In this document: in pieces, positions 30,087 to 61,977 of the stretch
How the letters are laid out: every line of letters begins with the position of its first letter
Position numbering within the stretch: the stretch's first letter is position 1
Origin: a virus
DNA: 64,000 bases
IMG/VR virus record: IMGVR_UViG_3300028581_000020
Coordinates: 32,001 to 96,000 of that record
Strand: one strand, 5' to 3'
Notes under the pieces: generated by a model
What the model saw: only the letters and a program-made list of their open reading frames with translations
What the model was told of the DNA's origin: nothing
Database searches by the model: none
Position numbers and translations under genes: made by a program

Positions 30087-32027
30087 TTAGTTTCCGACCC
30101 TCTCGACGTTGAAATAAGTATTTGCAGTAGTTCCCGAAATTGTGAGTGTGCTTGCCGAGTTGTTTCCAAGGCCGTATAGGAAGATTTCAACGTAATCCCC
30201 AGCATTCAACTGAAGCGTCGTGCTTCCATTGAACGCGTTGATTGTCGTTGCGGCAGATGTTCTGTACCCAAACAGACGAGCGGACGCTCCGTTTTTGTAG
30301 AGGTAAAGCCCGTAATCAGATGCGAGCACGTTAGCTGAGGCGAGCAGGACTGCGGAGCTTATGCGGTACTTACCCGATACGGGTGCAGTGAATCTGCTGT
30401 TTGCTGAGCTAAATGATCCGGTCGTGTCAAACACTGCGGAAGAAAAAGCTACCTTAACGAAACTATTATTCGTCGCGATCCCTGTTTGGTTAGACCCTCC
30501 AAGTGTTGCATCCATCGCGACTGTTTCACTCGCCGCGATCTGCGACGGGCCGGAGATACGCGAGATTGAGAAGTAGTTGTCAACAACACTACCTCCGACA
30601 TTCAATGCTCCACCTGAGTTTTGGAAAACTTGAATCCCTACCGTGTCCCCTGCATTGAACAAATATTCTGTTGCACCATTCAAAAACGTACCTGCAGAAG
30701 CCGTAGGGTCGAATATGTATGCCAGTGTGCGGATATTGCTTCCGTTTACACGCAGACGAACCTCACGACCGTTCGTCGAGCTTGCGGCAAAACTTACTTG
30801 AGTCGTAATCCTATACCAGCCGGGGACTGGAATCGTGTAGAGACTTGTACCGGTATTCCAAGCCCCGTGCGTGTCGCTGATTGCGGCATCGAACGCTACG
30901 AGTGTTCCGGTGCTGTCTGGAATTGACTGAGTGGCTGCGCGGCCTGTAGTCATTGCCACGACGCGAGTGTCCGTCTCAGACGACATCTGCACTTGAGACG
31001 ACCATCCGGTGATGGGGACGAGGAAAGATCCGCCAAAAACCGTGTTGTTGGCCCAAGCCGTCCCTAACGTGCCATTGAAATAATTATCTGCCTGTTGGCT
31101 AATGATTGCGACCGTTGTTGGAGAACCTGTGGCTACGAGAATATTGCCTGACCATGGGGTTTTAGATGCGGTAAGCGCCCCCACAACAGAGTTGTTTACG
31201 GCTCTAGTTATGTCCATAGAAAGGCCGCTTGGCAGCGAAATAGAAACTGGTGATCCAGAATTTGTTCCAGAAGTAACTGTAAACATGACTTCAAGAGAAT
31301 CACCTACGCGCCGATACTTGGCGATAGATGCAGAAACAGTTCCTAGGCCAACGTATGTCGGAGTGTAGCTCTGCCAGTCCGTGACTGGCGTTCCCTGCGT
31401 GATGATCTGCGGAGAGACGCGGACGTCGGATAGCGCCATCGTGTAGGCGGATGCCGACGTGCTGCCAACGTGGATACAGAGGCGGTAGCTGGTCGAGTTA
31501 GAGGCTGCCTGGAAAGTGCCTCTCCAACTTTGTTGAACAGTGGTGCTTTCAATCGAAGAAGGGGCCGGTTGAATCAAAATCGAGTTGGTAACATCGTAGA
31601 TCCAGACCGAAAGATCGCTCGTGGCGTAAGTCCCGCTGACTACCTCGTAGGGGAACGTAATTTGCAGGACTTTACCTTTGTCGGAATTATCAATCGTGAA
31701 TGCATTCGAGACCCCGTTGCCTTGCCGGTTGTTTGCATCCTTGACGAGGTTGAAGTCAGCTCCCGGACGAAGCGGCGTTGTGGTCGAGCGCGAGATCGCA
31801 AACGTAGGGCTACCGCCCGTGCAATCGACCGGAGAGCTGGCTGCCGAATCAGCATACCCCGCCCATCCGAGAGTATCTTTTCTAGCGTAGGCGTTTTTTA
31901 TGTAGTTGCGGGAAGAGCTTGATCCGCTGTCGAGGAAATCTGCATCTAAAAACCTAGGGGTTTGCGCAAACGTAGTGCTCGCCCCAAGGGCTGCCGCTGC
32001 CAGTAAGAGGCGTTTGAAAAATTTCAT
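30087..32027 (-). CDS. signal-peptide-bearing fibre/adhesin-like protein with two C1q-like domains
   Basis: MKFFKRLLLAAAALGASTTFA-Q; YTIPVPGWY...FNAGDTV and FTAPVSGKY...LNAGDYVEI. Confidence 0.65.
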   Translation of the reverse strand: MKFFKRLLLAAAALGASTTFAQTPRFLDADFLDSGSSSSRNYIKNAYARKDTLGWAGYADSAASSPVDCTGGSPTFAISRSTTTPLRPGADFNLVKDANNRQGNGVSNAFTIDNSDKGKVLQITFPYEVVSGTYATSDLSVWIYDVTNSILIQPAPSSIESTTVQQSWRGTFQAASNSTSYRLCIHVGSTSASAYTMALSDVRVSPQIITQGTPVTDWQSYTPTYVGLGTVSASIAKYRRVGDSLEVMFTVTSGTNSGSPVSISLPSGLSMDITRAVNNSVVGALTASKTPWSGNILVATGSPTTVAIISQQADNYFNGTLGTAWANNTVFGGSFLVPITGWSSQVQMSSETDTRVVAMTTGRAATQSIPDSTGTLVAFDAAISDTHGAWNTGTSLYTIPVPGWYRITTQVSFAASSTNGREVRLRVNGSNIRTLAYIFDPTASAGTFLNGATEYLFNAGDTVGIQVFQNSGGALNVGGSVVDNYFSISRISGPSQIAASETVAMDATLGGSNQTGIATNNSFVKVAFSSAVFDTTGSFSSANSRFTAPVSGKYRISSAVLLASANVLASDYGLYLYKNGASARLFGYRTSAATTINAFNGSTTLQLNAGDYVEIFLYGLGNNSASTLTISGTTANTYFNVERVGN

Positions 32028-53248: not shown

Positions 53249-53340
53249 TCCCCCTGCAAATAATCCTTGACTCTCAACGTCCCAACTATCATTATCAAAT
53301 GTACCAACAGCCCTAAAAGCCGAATTGGAGCGGCTAAATC

Positions 53341-53595
53341 ATGAAATACCGATTTAAAACCACGTTGATAGCAACCTTGCTCGCAGGGAGCCTTGGGGTT
53401 TCCTCTTCTCCTGCAAATGCGATCGCGAAGCCGCGCATCTCCCTGGAAGATGCCGTCGAAAAGCTTCGTGTAAAGTATTCGATCATGGATGCATCCGAGA
53501 ACATGCGTGCACGTCACAAGCAAGAACGAGCGGAACTAAAAGAGCGCCAAAAAACTGAGCGCGAATCTCTCAAGTTCCAATTGGGGCGCAAATGA
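53341..53595 (+). CDS. small exported coiled-coil protein
   Basis: Signal peptide ending ANA; GGAGCGG SD. Confidence 0.6.
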   Translation: MKYRFKTTLIATLLAGSLGVSSSPANAIAKPRISLEDAVEKLRVKYSIMDASENMRARHKQERAELKERQKTERESLKFQLGRK

Positions 53596-56610: not shown

Positions 56611-56819
56611 AGGTTGATTCCGGCTCCGGCGACGGCTCCGGCGACGGCTACGGCTACGGCTCCGGCGACGGCGACGGCTCCGGCTACGGCTCCGGCGACG
56701 GCGACGGCTCCGGCTACGGCGACGGCTACGGCTCCGGCTACGGCGACGGCTCCGGCGACGGCGACGGCTCCGGCGACGGCGACGGCTACGGCTCCGGCTA
56801 CGGCGACGGCTACGGTTGA
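56598..56819 (+). CDS. Gly-(Asp/Ser/Tyr) repeat peptide
   Basis: GTG start overlapping the upstream gene; GSGDGYG repeats. Confidence 0.55.
   Translation: MATVEVDSGSGDGSGDGYGYGSGDGDGSGYGSGDGDGSGYGDGYGSGYGDGSGDGDGSGDGDGYGSGYGDGYG
56619..56816 (+). repeat. hexamer tandem repeat GGC(TCC/GAC/TAC)
   Basis: About 200 bp of ggctcc/ggcgac/ggctac units. Confidence 0.9.
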
Positions 56820-56853: not shown

Positions 56854-57198
56854 GTGCCGCAAAGACGCCGGGGGTGGCGAGTGATTAGCGACTGGCACAT
56901 GCAGGATGACCGCAAGTCAGGGAAAGTGATCAAAGTCCGCAAGACTTTACGCCCCATGGACGAGGCAGCCTCGGATGCGTGGCTAAAGAAGCTCGGCGAA
57001 TGGATCGAGGCCAATCCTCCCCCTGCCAGTGGCGTGGCCCTAAAAATGGCAGAAGAGCGCACGACAAACAAGATCGTGTGGTGGGCTCTCAATACCTACG
57101 GTAATGTCCAACTCGCTGCCGACAAATTGGGTATGCTGAGATCAACTCTCTTTGAGCGTATGCGGGCTCAGGGAATTAAATGGGAGCGGAAGAGATGA
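56854..57198 (+). CDS. Fis-type helix-turn-helix protein
   Basis: ALNTYGNVQLAADKLGMLRSTLFERM; start uncertain (possibly GTG 56881). Confidence 0.7.
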   Translation: MPQRRRGWRVISDWHMQDDRKSGKVIKVRKTLRPMDEAASDAWLKKLGEWIEANPPPASGVALKMAEERTTNKIVWWALNTYGNVQLAADKLGMLRSTLFERMRAQGIKWERKR

Positions 57199-57485
57199 TT
57201 ATTGAAGTATCGACCTACACCGACGAAGACGAATTGGTTGAATGCAAGTTCGATGTTTGGCTCCCCGGAGGCGACGACACTCCGCAAGCGACATTCGTCG
57301 AGGGTTGGAAAGACGGGCCCGCATTGAGAGAGGATCTGTACGATACGGCGTGGCTCAGACGTGCTGGCATCTACGATGAATTAGTCGAGGCAGCCTGCGC
57401 GAAGTATGATCCGGTGCTTGACTCAGAGCTTGCGGATATTGAGAAGGGTGACAACGCCTTGGATCTCGCGAGGGAGCTAGATTAA
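57195..57485 (+). CDS. acidic hypothetical protein
   Basis: GGAGCGG SD; ATGA overlap. Confidence 0.6.
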   Translation: MIIEVSTYTDEDELVECKFDVWLPGGDDTPQATFVEGWKDGPALREDLYDTAWLRRAGIYDELVEAACAKYDPVLDSELADIEKGDNALDLARELD

Positions 57486-57519
57486 AAAAAGGGCTCCTGG
57501 TTTTTAGCCAGGAGCCCTT
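57484..57519 (-). terminator. intrinsic terminator (T-tract on the - strand)
   Basis: 12-bp perfect stem AAGGGCTCCTGG/CCAGGAGCCCTT; the A7 on the + strand gives a T7 tract on the - strand. Confidence 0.75.
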
Positions 57520-57564
57520 AACGGCGTTAACAGATACCATTGGAGCGGACTGAGAGACGCCTGA
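57484..57564 (-). ncRNA. candidate ~80-nt antisense small RNA
   Basis: TTGACG-17-TACCTT promoter at 57599-57571, terminator, no plausible SD-led ORF in the transcript, complementarity to 61469-61506. Confidence 0.55.
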
Positions 57565-57635
57565 TCCGGTAAGGTACTAGCGCAAATTAAAATCGTCAAG
57601 TAAGTTTCTGTCCGGGGAGCGGAGGGGATCGTCAT

Positions 57636-60005
57636 TTGTTACAGATTTTGGGGCTGAGGGAAAAGTTCAATTCAAAGCTCGGCATACGTAGACCTAGCGA
57701 GGATTTCTTCGCGAAGGGCTGGCGCGCAATGGACTTGCGCACGATGTTTGCCTCCCTGCCAGATGTGCTGGCGCAGATCCCGGAAGATCAGCGTTGGAAC
57801 CTGTTCTACACGATGCACCATGTGTTTGAAGAGCCAGGCCGGCGCATGGAGCGCATGGAGGCCTACGCCTTTGACATCGATCAGATCCCCGGCTTCTCGG
57901 GTACGCGCGATCAGGTACGCGAGATTGCGGGTGTGGTTGCGCGCACGCTAGGCCTCCCCCTGGAAGAACTTGGCGTTGTCTGCAGCGGGAACGGCGTGCA
58001 CGTTCTCGTATATTTGGACCCGAGTTGTTGGCAGACATCGCCGGAATATTTTGAAAAGAACCGGGGGCATTACCGGGCAGTCTGCGACAACATCAATCGA
58101 GCCCTGGATGTGGCGGGCTACGGGGGCGCAAAAGCTGACCCCGCAATCTTTGATCAGGCGCGAATTCTCAGGCTCCCCGGAACCCTCAATCGCAAGACGA
58201 AAGAGGGGCAGTTACGTGAGCGTAACTGTTACCTCTTGCAGGGGGATTTAAAGCCCCAGAAAATCGATATCTCCGAGCTCTCGGGGATCCCGGAAGTCAG
58301 TCCCGAGGACGCAATCCCCGAGGCGCAGATGGCTAGGTTCCCGGAGCCAGACCCGGAAGGGGTGCTGGGCGGCTGCAGTTTCCTGAAAGAGTGCAAGGCG
58401 CTGCCTAAGACGGTGACGGAGCCCAACTGGTACGCCATGCTCTCGATCATTGGTCGCTTGCCTAATGGCCGCGAGCTTGCGCATGAATATTCAAAAGGCC
58501 ATCCAAACTACACCCCTCAGGAGACTGAGGCGAAGCTTGATCAGGCGATGGCCCAAGCGGGCCCCCGCACCTGCCAGAACGTGCAGGATCTTTGGGGCAA
58601 ATGTAAGCAGTGCCCCTATTACGGAAAGATTCCGAGTCCGATCGTTATCAAGGGCGAGAACTATATCGCAACCGAGAAGACGGGCTTTCACCACATGACG
58701 ACGGGCCAGGACGGGAGACCGAAGCCTGGCAAAGCCGACTGGGATGGGCTGAGAAAGTTCTTTCAGCGCAAACACCCCTACGCAACGCTTGCCGATGGCG
58801 AGTATCTAGTGACCTGGACCGGCACCCACTGGCAGGAGTATTCAAAGGTTGAGGCAAAGGCATTTGCGCAGAAGCACTTCAGGCCGGTAGCGGATACGAA
58901 TAAAGCGAATGAGTTCCTGGGAATTTTGCTACGCAATGAGGTGCGCCCCCGGGGTTGGACGCAACATGGGACGAAGGGGAAATTGAACTTTCTTAATGGA
59001 ACCCTGGAGCCCCGTACGATGTCGTTTGGTCCGCACAACCGAGACGACGGATTCATGAACGTGATTCCCTACGCGTATGATCCGAAGGCTGCGGCTCCTC
59101 GGTTTGAAAAGTTCCTTGATGATGTGACATGCGGGCACCGGGAGCTTCGCGAAATCCTCCTGCAATATATCGGATACTCGCTCTCAAACGATGCGATATG
59201 GGAACAGAAATGCCTCATCCTGCAGGGGGAGGGACGCAACGGAAAATCCACTCTAATGCAGGTAGTGCGCGAGCTTGCAGGTGAGGGTAACTCTGCGTCG
59301 CTGACTCTCACTGAGCTTGAAAAAGACACGAACCGTTTCTCGCTTGACGGTGCGTTCTTTAATATGGCCGAAGAAGCTCCCACGCGTGGGATGCTCGAGA
59401 GCGGAATCTTCAAGACGCTCATTGGCGGCGGGAGCTTCCAGGTAAAGAAGCTTTACTCGCAGCCGTACTCAATTCAAAATCGTGCGAAGCTCTGGCTTGC
59501 GTGTAACGACATGCCTCGCTTCAACGACTTCACGGTGGGGATGTTCCGCCGGCTTGTGATCGTGCCTTTCCAGGCGAAGTTTGAGGGAGCAAACGTCGAT
59601 AAGAACATCGGAGCAAAGCTCAGCGAAGAGCTCCCCGGAATCTTCAATCTTGCGATGGCAGCCTACGGGCGGATGCGCGCAAACGGAGGACTCCTGGATT
59701 CGCAATTGGTGCAGGAGCAGGCCGACATGTACCGGCTTGAACAGGACTCGGTGTACAACTGGTGGCAGGATAATGTCGAAGTTGTACCCATGTCGGAGAC
59801 GGCCCCCCGGGTTGACTCAAGTAAGTTATTCCAGGAGTACGCAATGCACATGCGCCAGTCGGAGGAGAAGCCTTTGTCTGCTCAGCAATTCCAAAAGCGT
59901 GTGCGCACATTTGTGAAAGATATTGAAGCTAGGCGCGTGCGATCAAATGGCGTGCGTTGGCTCATAGGCATTTCGTTATTGACAAGGCGTATGGAAAACT
60001 TCTAG
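57636..60005 (+). CDS. primase-helicase (primase-like N-terminus, D5/P4-family SF3 helicase)
   Basis: FDID, SGNGVH, RILRLPG primase motifs; GEGRNGKST Walker A; ACNDMP; FRRL. Confidence 0.88.
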   Translation: MLQILGLREKFNSKLGIRRPSEDFFAKGWRAMDLRTMFASLPDVLAQIPEDQRWNLFYTMHHVFEEPGRRMERMEAYAFDIDQIPGFSGTRDQVREIAGVVARTLGLPLEELGVVCSGNGVHVLVYLDPSCWQTSPEYFEKNRGHYRAVCDNINRALDVAGYGGAKADPAIFDQARILRLPGTLNRKTKEGQLRERNCYLLQGDLKPQKIDISELSGIPEVSPEDAIPEAQMARFPEPDPEGVLGGCSFLKECKALPKTVTEPNWYAMLSIIGRLPNGRELAHEYSKGHPNYTPQETEAKLDQAMAQAGPRTCQNVQDLWGKCKQCPYYGKIPSPIVIKGENYIATEKTGFHHMTTGQDGRPKPGKADWDGLRKFFQRKHPYATLADGEYLVTWTGTHWQEYSKVEAKAFAQKHFRPVADTNKANEFLGILLRNEVRPRGWTQHGTKGKLNFLNGTLEPRTMSFGPHNRDDGFMNVIPYAYDPKAAAPRFEKFLDDVTCGHRELREILLQYIGYSLSNDAIWEQKCLILQGEGRNGKSTLMQVVRELAGEGNSASLTLTELEKDTNRFSLDGAFFNMAEEAPTRGMLESGIFKTLIGGGSFQVKKLYSQPYSIQNRAKLWLACNDMPRFNDFTVGMFRRLVIVPFQAKFEGANVDKNIGAKLSEELPGIFNLAMAAYGRMRANGGLLDSQLVQEQADMYRLEQDSVYNWWQDNVEVVPMSETAPRVDSSKLFQEYAMHMRQSEEKPLSAQQFQKRVRTFVKDIEARRVRSNGVRWLIGISLLTRRMENF

Positions 60006-60008
60006 GTT
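59979..60008 (+). promoter_or_regulatory. sigma70-like promoter upstream of the helicase gene
   Basis: TTGACA-18-TAGGTT; TATTGACAAGGC identical to 52266-52277. Confidence 0.45.
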
Positions 60009-60024
60009 AGTGGGTGGAGCGGCA

Positions 60025-61497
60025 ATGATCGAATTCGATAAATTATGGGACCACCAAAAGCGAGCCGTCGCGCTCGCCATGCAGCAGCGAGACTTCGCGC
60101 TGTTCCACGACATGGGCGCGGGCAAGACGGGCACGATGATCAATATCCTGCGCCGCCGCTATGGCGAGGCCGGGCGCCTGCGCCGCACGCTGATCGTCTC
60201 GCCGCTCATCACGCTTGATAACTGGAAGAAAGAATTCGGGCAATTCTCGAAGGTGGATCCCCGGCACATTCTTATCTTGAAAGGCGCGGGCCGTAAGCGT
60301 GCAAAGGATTTCATGAAGTTTGTTTCGGACCCCGTGACCGAACGACTTGTTTTCAACCGCGTGGTCATCATGAACTACGAGTCGGTTCAAATGAAGGAAC
60401 TGTATGACGCAATCAAAGCCTGGAATCCTGAGATCATTGTTTTTGATGAAGCTCATCGACTCAGAAATCACCAGTCAAAACGCGCGCGAGCTTGCGCGAA
60501 TCTGGCTGACATCGCAAAGCACCGATATCTGCTTACGGGATCGCCGATCCTTAATTCAGCAATGGACGTGTTCTTCCAGTACCGCTGTCTCGACCTTGGA
60601 GACACGTTTGGGCAGAACTTTTACGCCTTCCGAAACCGATACTTTGAAGACCGAAACTCTGGCTGGGCTAGTAAGCCTGGTTACTTCCCCGACTTTGAAG
60701 CTCGTCCTGAGGCTTTTGCCGATCTCCACGCGCGCATGTACAAAGACGGCAGAGGGCTTGCCCGCGCCCACCGAGTGATGAAGAAAGACTGCCTTGACCT
60801 ACCCCCACTGGTGAAGACCAAGATCGAAGTAGAGCTCTCGCCGGATCAACGGAAGATGTACAAGGAAATGTCAGACGAGTTCCTGACATTTGTTGAGCGC
60901 GAGAAACAAACGGGCACACCACTAGCAGTGGTGGCACAGCTTGCAATCACGAAGGCGCTCCGCTTGCAGCAGATCGTAACCGGCTTCTGCAAGGCGGAAG
61001 ACGGAGTTGAGTATGAGATTGCAGGGGGGAATCCCAGGCTCGAGGCGCTAGAGGAATTGCTTGAAGACTTGGCTCCGAACGGCAAAGTAATTGTGTGGGC
61101 ATGCTTTAAGCAGAACTACCAACAGATTGCACGCGTGTGTGACAAGCTGAAGCTCCCTTACCGGATGATCCATGGTGAGATTAGGAACGCTGATAAGCAG
61201 ATAGCCATGGAAGAGTTCCGCAAAGACGAATCGATCAAGGTGATGATTGCAAACCAGGGGGCTGCAGGCATTGGCGTGAATTTGGTTGAAGCCCCGTATT
61301 CTGTGTTTTTCTCCCGGAACTTTTCGCTTGAGCAAGATACTCAGGCCGAGGCACGCAACTATCGCGGTGGATCTGAGATGCATACAAGTGTGACTCGCTA
61401 TGATATTGTTGCGCGAAATAGTATTGACGAGTTAATCGCCGACGCGTTAGCAGGTAAGCAGAAAATCGCAGATACCATTCTCGATTGGAAAATATAA
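60025..61497 (+). CDS. SNF2-family (SF2) helicase
   Basis: DMGAGKT, DEAH, LTGSP, GIGVNL, QAEARNYR. Confidence 0.9.
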   Translation: MIEFDKLWDHQKRAVALAMQQRDFALFHDMGAGKTGTMINILRRRYGEAGRLRRTLIVSPLITLDNWKKEFGQFSKVDPRHILILKGAGRKRAKDFMKFVSDPVTERLVFNRVVIMNYESVQMKELYDAIKAWNPEIIVFDEAHRLRNHQSKRARACANLADIAKHRYLLTGSPILNSAMDVFFQYRCLDLGDTFGQNFYAFRNRYFEDRNSGWASKPGYFPDFEARPEAFADLHARMYKDGRGLARAHRVMKKDCLDLPPLVKTKIEVELSPDQRKMYKEMSDEFLTFVEREKQTGTPLAVVAQLAITKALRLQQIVTGFCKAEDGVEYEIAGGNPRLEALEELLEDLAPNGKVIVWACFKQNYQQIARVCDKLKLPYRMIHGEIRNADKQIAMEEFRKDESIKVMIANQGAAGIGVNLVEAPYSVFFSRNFSLEQDTQAEARNYRGGSEMHTSVTRYDIVARNSIDELIADALAGKQKIADTILDWKI

Positions 61498-61506
61498 GGA
61501 GCGGAC

Positions 61507-61977
61507 ATGGCAAGTGAATTGGATTCCTGGGACGAAGCGACTCCCGTGATTGAGGTCTCAACGCAAGAGCTAGATGCTCTCGTGCAGCGAATGGACACCC
61601 TCTGGGACGAGTCAGAGAAGGTAAAGAAGCTGGCAAGTGAGGCTCGCGCGGCCTACGATGAGGTCGAGGCACGCGTGCTCGCGATGCTGAAAGCCGCTGG
61701 AAAAAAGAGCTACATCGTTGATGGACTTGGCACCGTGTCGATCACCAACAAATACATGATTACAACGCCCAAGGGGATTGAGGAAAAGAAACGGCTCTTT
61801 GCCTACATCAACAAGGAGCACGGGGAAGAGGGGCTATATGGCTTACTCACGATCAATTCCCAGACGCTCAATAGCTTTGTGAACGCAGAGCTTGACCGCA
61901 AACCTGAAGTACAAATTCCCGGACTCGATGCACCGACTCACCGTGAGTCTCTTTCGTTCCGGGCAAAAAAGAAGTGA
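61507..61977 (+). CDS. conserved replication-module protein
   Basis: Coiled coil plus GLGTVS...INSQTLNSF...IPGL. Confidence 0.6.
   Translation: MASELDSWDEATPVIEVSTQELDALVQRMDTLWDESEKVKKLASEARAAYDEVEARVLAMLKAAGKKSYIVDGLGTVSITNKYMITTPKGIEEKKRLFAYINKEHGEEGLYGLLTINSQTLNSFVNAELDRKPEVQIPGLDAPTHRESLSFRAKKK

Follow-up and report, generated by a model that had tools for sequence, protein, structure and literature searches.

What would the strongest transcription terminator of a viral genome do in a place where it points against every gene around it? The question is raised by a 150-nucleotide (nt) spacer in a 104.5-kb IMG/VR record from lake water (IMGVR_UViG_3300028581_000020), of which we analyzed bases 32001 to 96000; this whole stretch of 64,000 nt is the window, and positions are counted from its first base. 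The neighboring genes all lie on the plus strand, where a series of small genes runs to 57485 and is followed by the spacer and then by genes for a D5-type primase, an SNF2 helicase, a gp33-like protein, a gp34-like protein, and an exonuclease. On the minus strand, the spacer holds a hairpin with a T tract, and as a terminator-like sequence no other site of the record comes near it. We consider it probable that this hairpin ends a small RNA of about 60 to 95 nt that is transcribed divergently, is conserved in relatives, and would block the ribosome sites of the replication genes.

The features from which such an RNA gene is predicted in the window are as follows.

57594-57599, minus strand: -35-like box TTGACG, read from the sequence
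57571-57576, minus strand: -10-like box TACCTT, matching at 3 of 6 positions (A2 and T6 kept), with a 17-nt spacer to the -35-like box
57484-57564, minus strand: predicted small RNA of about 81 nt, its 5' end placed from the -10-like box and its 3' end in the U tract
57531-57550, minus strand: seed region, reading GUCCGCUCCAAUGGUAUCUG in the RNA, with CUCCAA in the apical loop and a mean unpaired probability of 0.54
57484-57519, minus strand: intrinsic terminator, with a hairpin at 57519-57489 of 12 base pairs (bp), 8 of them G-C, a 7-nt loop, and a T7 run ending at 57484

The predicted RNA folds with a minimum free energy of -34.6 kcal/mol (z = -5.3) into a 5' stem-loop followed by the terminator hairpin, and a GGCGU/ACGCC stem that would present the seed is part of this fold. 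The U tail of the terminator reaches into the TAA (57483-57485) with which the upstream plus-strand gene ends; read on the plus strand, the stem is followed by UU only, so that the site should terminate transcription in one direction. The terminator stem and its U7 tail have the form usual for an Hfq-binding module, namely a 3' hairpin and a U tail of at least 6. No open reading frame (ORF) led by a Shine-Dalgarno (SD) sequence was found in the RNA, whose sole AUG (57540) has a CU-rich upstream sequence and a frame that crosses the terminator. A scan against Rfam 15 gave no family at its gathering score, C4 antisense RNA included; the best minus-strand match, BjrC68, reached 21.6 bits (E = 0.012), short of its gathering score of 39, and probably reflects the terminator hairpin, and C4 antisense RNA was not among the matches at E of at most 10. 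A nucleotide search of the spacer against a phage collection found no match, and the exact 20-mer at the seed has no occurrence in IMG/VR. A first-pass annotation, made from the letters of this DNA, had already described the promoter boxes (57599-57571), the 12-bp terminator with its T7 tract (57519-57484), the stem that presents the seed, the lack of a plausible SD-led ORF, and the split repeat discussed below, and all of these were found as it described them.

Other readings of the same letters were tried and rejected: a 43-amino-acid (aa) minus-strand frame (57635-57504), which begins upstream of the promoter and is without an SD; the AUG at 57540, likewise without an SD; a plus-strand TTG at 57540, which opens 10 codons only; and TTGACGATTTTAA, around the -35 box, as a phage promoter motif, its recurrence being a coincidence of coding sequences.

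The body of the RNA gene, about 45 nt between the promoter-like site and the terminator, contains in one piece a plus-strand 20-mer (57531-57550) that recurs 4 kb away as an 11-mer and a 9-mer. The 18 nt between the two blocks hold the helicase stop codon TAA (61495-61497), and the ATG of the gp33-like gene (61507) follows directly after the 9-mer. These blocks and the further sites at which the seed is predicted to pair are listed here.

61469-61479, plus strand: target block 1, the 11-mer CAGATACCATT, in the last helicase codons (A-D-T-I), with a predicted helix of about -14.0 kcal/mol
61498-61506, plus strand: target block 2, the 9-mer GGAGCGGAC, at the SD of the gp33-like gene, with a predicted helix of about -17.4 kcal/mol
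57616-57623, plus strand: GGAGCGGA in the primase start region, the second predicted target (8 bp), 74 nt away
60015-60022, plus strand: TGGAGCGG in the helicase start region, a predicted target
57183-57190, plus strand: GGAGCGGA before the ATG at 57195 (96-aa gene), a predicted target
53324-53333, plus strand: ATTGGAGCGG, a 10-nt seed match 7 nt before the ATG at 53341 (84-aa gene)

Each half of the repeat, taken by itself, is at the level of chance, the spacer sharing nine direct and eight inverted matches of at least 11 nt with the record. Split repeats, defined by blocks of at least 8 nt, a total of at least 20 nt, and a gap of at most 30 nt, occur five times in the real record outside a tandem repeat, versus 1.5 times per genome in Markov-2 simulations. 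An ordinary spacer and hairpin in which a random split repeat came to be noticed would be consistent with such figures and with the lack of enrichment of promoter-like strings, but it would also have to account for where the repeat lies. One copy stands in a body before the strongest terminator and the other at an SD and AUG, a coincidence with an expectation, roughly estimated, of about 1e-4; if the 9-mer site is taken as real, the odds of an 11-mer falling within 30 nt next to it are about 7e-6; and the pattern is repeated in independent lineages. Chance is a highly improbable explanation on this evidence. Because of the low expectation for the 11-mer, selection or common descent very probably ties the bipartite match to the RNA. 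The repeat alone is unremarkable; its setting, with a terminator, a promoter-like site, and an SD with its start codon, is unusual.

The predicted targets share a word. On the plus strand of the early block GGAGCGG occurs six times, at five start regions (53327, 57183, 57616, 60016, and 61498) and in the RNA body (57542), whereas the other plus-strand genes of this block, about two dozen by a crude call, have different SD contexts without it. Its spacing to the start codon varies among the five start regions, and the match to the RNA extends beyond it on differing sides, through ATT at 53324 and through AC and the 11-mer at 61469-61506. The latter site is the best in trans, a seed-only duplex reaching -31.9 kcal/mol versus -21.5 kcal/mol for the next trans site in 52 to 64 kb; at the remaining four start regions the values are -18 to -21 kcal/mol. 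In a cruder ranking that takes accessibility into account, 61469-61506 is within the best four sites of 209 kb (both strands) and stands ahead of every other start region, and the ranking is topped by the RNA's own site, where a read-through mRNA would be fully complementary (-94.8 kcal/mol). Full-length RNAduplex ranking of start regions discriminated poorly, long interior loops and GC-rich terminator arms dominating the score, and seed-only duplexes and exact-match statistics were used in its place. Judged by these sequence matches, the five start regions look like a small regulon more than a single target.

We infer from these features a noncoding RNA of about 80 nt that would be transcribed from the minus strand of the spacer, divergently from the primase gene, and would end at the strong intrinsic terminator abutting the upstream gene's stop codon. 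The part of the RNA that is single-stranded or in a loop would pair with plus-strand mRNAs at ribosome-binding sites, and this seed pairing would hinder 30S binding and so reduce translation initiation. The gp33-like gene would be the strongest target, with 11 plus 9 bp formed across an 18-nt bulge and reaching from the SD up to the AUG. Because the pairing would extend from the final codons of the helicase gene across all 10 nt of the intercistronic space, translational coupling between the helicase and gp33-like genes may be blocked as well. The GGAGCGG core (8 to 10 bp) would bring in weaker targets, namely the primase and helicase genes and two small early ones; across the family, the predicted partner conserved most widely is the primase start region. 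An mRNA that reads through the spacer would, in addition, be complementary to the whole RNA. The first-pass annotation, which proposed antisense action in trans on a single bipartite target, had singled out what remains the strongest site; the primase start region, the five-site GGAGCGG set, and the antisense relation to read-through mRNA had escaped it.

If the RNA matters to the phage, its gene should be recognizable in relatives. No relative was close enough for its spacer to be aligned with that of the window, and we therefore examined the recurrence of features instead. The relatives compared have helicases 42 to 57% identical to that of the window, 57% being the best uncultured one with usable flanks; a metagenome scan found no relative above 59% helicase identity, and a single-protein locus search yielded one relative, at 47%. 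A scan of IMG/VR with a primase profile gave mostly generic D5-helicase matches, the usable ones being L147, L148, and L156. Here L-numbers denote the lineages of relatives and WIN the window's own phage.

Minus-strand terminators, with hairpins of -11 to -24 kcal/mol and a T tract, lie 62 to 170 nt before the primase start in L091, L068, L006, L008/L047/L082, L007, L071, L108, L073, L009, L012, and L083/L089, and in many lineages the A tract of the terminator takes in the upstream stop codon, as it does in the window. In the 17 lineages whose primase and helicase genes are syntenic, 12 minus-strand terminator-like sites and 1 on the plus strand fall within 200 nt upstream of the primase start, a density of 3.5 per kb versus 0.67 per kb elsewhere (about 5-fold). 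Minus-strand sigma70-like promoters stand 33 to 56 nt before the primase start in WIN, L007, L071, L108, and L073, with weaker candidates in L012, L009, L083, L091, and L156, and the -10 boxes of the relatives in this spacer are of the TAnCCT type. Since L007, L071, and L108 have in common the promoter and an 11-nt 5' motif (TTCAATGCCGC), their predicted RNAs are homologous; mini-ORFs at the 5' ends of these three RNAs were considered and rejected, their peptides not being conserved. The predicted RNAs of the relatives measure 57 to 94 nt, each with a terminator hairpin and usually with a 5' hairpin.

Position and strand are not all that recurs. The RNA body carries an exact copy, 7 to 12 nt long, of the primase start region in 8 to 9 lineages and a copy of the gp33-like start region in five, with lengths (nt) in parentheses below.

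WIN: primase GGAGCGGA (8); gp33-like GGAGCGGAC (9) plus the 11-mer
L007: primase AAGGTAGG (8); gp33-like AAGGTAGGC (9), 12/13 with one bulge
L071: primase AAGGAGTAA (9); gp33-like TAAGGAGTAAA (11); a third start region (9)
L108: primase AAAAGGAGTAA (11); contig ends before the gp33-like gene
L073: primase 12-mer; gp33-like none
L091: primase 9-mer; gp33-like none
L012: primase 7-mer; gp33-like 8-mer
L008: primase none; gp33-like 8-mer
L156 (helicase divergent): primase AAAAGGACAAG (11), in the terminator loop; gp33-like none
L148 (no helicase match in the locus): primase TCTATATGAA (10), over the start codon

When significance was assessed against equal-length sliding windows of the same locus and combined by Fisher's method, the primase copies gave p = 1e-5 over 14 lineages (4e-5 without the window) and the gp33-like copies p = 1.3e-3 (6.7e-3 without the window). 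All copies of at least 8 nt are oriented for antisense pairing with the minus-strand RNA; reverse-complement controls with the same start regions gave 4 to 7 nt in the lineages with copies of at least 8 nt and 4 to 9 nt in all lineages. Within the loci of L156, L148, and L091, the shared motif occurs only at the RNA body and the start region. Most seeds are in regions predicted to be unpaired, and in some lineages the seed is an anti-SD word in the loop of the terminator hairpin itself, UUACUCCUU at L071:1932-1970 and L108:785-818 and ACUUGUCCUUUU at L156:2011-2051. The anti-SD word of L071 and L108 resembles the 3' end of 16S rRNA. In the compared sequences the words change by lineage and the relation between them is kept, which is covariation at the level of the family. 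Duplication of a target site by a mobile promoter cassette was rejected as a source of the copies, those of the gp33-like gene being 4 kb away and the repeats perfect in highly diverged lineages.

The same words could be read as sites for a protein, either the operator of a translational repressor or a DNA-binding site, or as a private extended SD, of which the spacer holds one additional copy, with the hairpin acting merely as a terminator or insulator. GGAGCGG at five start regions, at variable distances from the start codon, would suit such an account, as would the direct repeats 74 to 121 nt apart that flank the divergent promoter region in many lineages and the four iteron-like copies of CTGGCAAGA in or near the spacer before the primase in L073 (L073:3280-3615). 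The extra copy, however, always lies within the minus-strand promoter-terminator unit, always in an orientation compatible with antisense pairing, and often in a predicted loop. The extensions of the match on differing flanks (53324; 61469-61506) are unexpected for a fixed protein site, and a DNA operator would have no obvious role at the gp33-like copy, which lies within an operon and 10 nt beyond the helicase stop codon. We regard this explanation as quite unlikely. In L073 the 16-mer GGCAAGAAATAGGACA is present both in the RNA body and in the start region of a 153-codon ORF (L073:9700).

A real RNA need not act in trans. Bacteriophage lambda OOP RNA, about 77 nt long, has its own promoter and intrinsic terminator, is transcribed against the early operon from just ahead of the replication genes, and stops at the 3' end of the gene upstream of it, overlapping the end of the cII coding region extensively and acting in cis through RNase III (PMC12197685). 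The RNA predicted here resembles OOP in having its own promoter and terminator, running against an early operon, and lying beside replication genes. It could accordingly be an antisense RNA acting in cis only, through RNase III or interference, or an insulated spurious transcript, the matches in trans being incidental; pairing with read-through mRNA would then uncouple the primase from the upstream operon. The size of the RNA, its orientation, and its place beside the replication genes agree with the OOP precedent (PMC12197685). In the window's spacer, the stretch from the RNA gene to the primase shows no sigma70-like promoter on the plus strand, for which reason an OOP-like component in cis is possible, and the hairpin is no terminator on the plus strand, so that a read-through mRNA would be complementary to the RNA over its full length. 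Action in cis alone would nevertheless leave unexplained the lineage-specific copies of the primase and gp33-like start regions and the presence of GGAGCGG at five start regions. In L009, L012, and L004, a plus-strand promoter lies downstream of the RNA gene and would yield a primase mRNA without overlap with the RNA. In the window, furthermore, and unlike in OOP, the overlap with the upstream coding region comprises the stop codon only, and the seeds fit sites 74 nt and 4 kb away. The cis-only account seems unlikely to us.

OOP provides a further precedent, having once been proposed as a primer, and its promoter affects lambda replication (PMC12197685). A short transcript directly before the primase and helicase genes might by analogy serve DNA replication, by origin activation or by priming near the genes of the initiators, and not translation control. 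Such a role is barely credible, since it leaves the complementarity to ribosome sites unexplained and the window's spacer shows no AT-rich or iteron pattern.

Several observations weigh against the small RNA that we favor. The promoter scan of the window's spacer did not call the TTGACG/TACCTT site, whose -10 box is weak, and the pattern TTGACN-N16-18-TAnnnT has 2 matches in the 38.6-kb unit versus about 3.5 expected, which is no enrichment. An 18-nt bulge is unusual in a small RNA-mRNA duplex, and split repeats arise by chance at the rate given above. Among the relatives, the syntenic lineages L004, L010, L015, and L017 have no clear minus-strand terminator, and L068, L006, L009, L083, and L147 have no match to the primase start region. 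Single matches of 8 to 9 nt are marginal (p of 0.01 to 0.05), several of them consist in part of ordinary SD letters, and the repeated CTGGCAAGA of L073 could be a protein-binding iteron. No close relative is present in the collections, the best helicase among cultured phages being 30% identical, and the relatives are too distant for compensatory changes to be tested in the seed-target pair of the window itself. Four DNA runs mapped on 57100-61700 showed no variants. The support comes from sequence, the runs listed for this DNA being 12 DNA runs from lake water and no RNA run.

As to its role, the predicted RNA would probably set the dosage or timing of the replication module in lytic growth. 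This is more plausible than a carrier or lysogeny switch, because no integrase, repressor, or other lysogeny gene was seen, although the unit was not searched for them. The lysogenic or carrier role first suggested for the RNA finds nothing in its support, while the suggestion that an antisense RNA acts in trans at the gene after the helicase has gained comparative support from the relatives.

Short, separate pairings near a ribosome-binding site are an established means of repression in the immI region of phages P1 and P7, where c4 RNA represses a phage gene in this way, as a later paper recounts (Citron and Schuster 1990, via PMC8198154). The RNA of the window resembles c4 in that two short segments (11 and 9 nt) match a ribosome site that its own gene does not overlap. 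c4 is excised from the very sense transcript whose expression it controls, and its function in temperate phages is immunity. The RNA predicted here, by contrast, would be made from the other strand, with a divergent promoter and a terminator of its own, has replication genes as its predicted targets, and belongs to a podovirus-like unit in which no lysogeny genes were seen. P22 sar RNA, also short, is encoded directly opposite the phage ribosome site that it masks, and it controls the antirepressor (PMC12197685). Masking of a ribosome site is what the window's RNA would have in common with sar, but it is not encoded opposite its target site. In Firmicutes, the CU-rich loop seeds of RsaE/RoxS and RNAIII pair with the SD of several mRNAs, and these RNAs have a 5' hairpin and a U-tail terminator. 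They are chromosomal and concern host metabolism or virulence, whereas the RNA proposed here would let a phage act on its own replication module via GGAGCGG. A short RNA before a primase/helicase gene of PAK_P3 is a sense-strand fragment of a 5' untranslated region and is not comparable (PMC10914365). c4 is the closest in logic and OOP the closest in layout, and the predicted RNA is a member of neither. As in trans-encoded small RNAs generally, an accessible seed is complementary to the start region of a target, and at the level of the family the gene is conserved and seed and target change together.

Most base-pairing RNAs known to control a phage's own genes belong to a small number of temperate model phages (c4, OOP, and sar). 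The type of mechanism is already established; what our comparison would add is a conserved RNA family and a set of several target genes. If the reading is correct, it would provide a conserved example from abundant uncultured freshwater and marine podovirus-like phages, in which a replication module is controlled via several start regions with a common private tag. The prediction, consisting of an 81-nt RNA, defined seeds, and five targets, could be tested without the host.

More tentatively, and with less confidence than we place in the RNA itself, the findings may be extended to uncultured, apparently lytic podoviruses of about 40 kb, each lineage of which might have its own extended-SD word and a co-evolving RNA that carries the anti-word. 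The words would be GGAGCGG in the window, AAGGTAGG in L007, and AAGGAGTAA in L071; they would tag the primase gene, the gp33-like gene, and sometimes the helicase gene, with the RNA placed back to back with the primase promoter. Words and RNA that evolve together would provide the phage with a self-contained means, at the level of translation, to time DNA replication or control its dosage.

The neighboring genes on which these predictions bear are as follows.

57636-60005, plus strand: D5-type primase, start TTG set by homology with relatives (ATG/TTG then TTA)
60025-61497, plus strand: SNF2 helicase, from its probable true start ATG, which fits the 490-aa database protein P0001
61507-61977, plus strand: Pam3 gp33-like gene, DUF7307 (Pfam PF23984)
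57195, plus strand: probable true start ATG of the 96-aa gene upstream of the spacer, with an ATGA overlap with the preceding stop codon and the SD GGAG 8 nt upstream

The probable true starts of the 96-aa gene (57195) and the helicase (60025) differ from those of the longest ORFs. A fold search assigned no function to the product of the gp33-like gene, the main predicted target of the small RNA: its AlphaFold2 model (predicted local distance difference test score of 78.5) has one long helix followed by a small beta/alpha domain and found no match in the PDB, and its matches in BFVD are uncharacterized phage proteins, with faint ones to a host-nuclease inhibitor and Gp157. An identical helicase is carried by 12 contigs.

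The second TTGACN-type promoter match of the 38.6-kb unit, TTGACA-18-TAGGTT at 59979-60008 on the plus strand, lies in the 3' end of the primase gene just upstream of the helicase start region, and an mRNA from it would begin nearly at the GGAGCGG tag of the helicase. The contigs that carry relatives of the replication genes are about 40 kb long. Near-identical stretches at 30278 and 68540 stand at both ends of a unit of about 38 kb in the present record, and a Logan unitig spans about 56782 to 68301. Logan unitigs break at a dense, imperfect tandem repeat at 56620-56800 (plus strand), with units such as ACGGCTACGGCTCCGGCGACGGC, which lies within a small plus-strand ORF that would encode a repeat protein rich in Gly, Tyr, Ser, and Asp.

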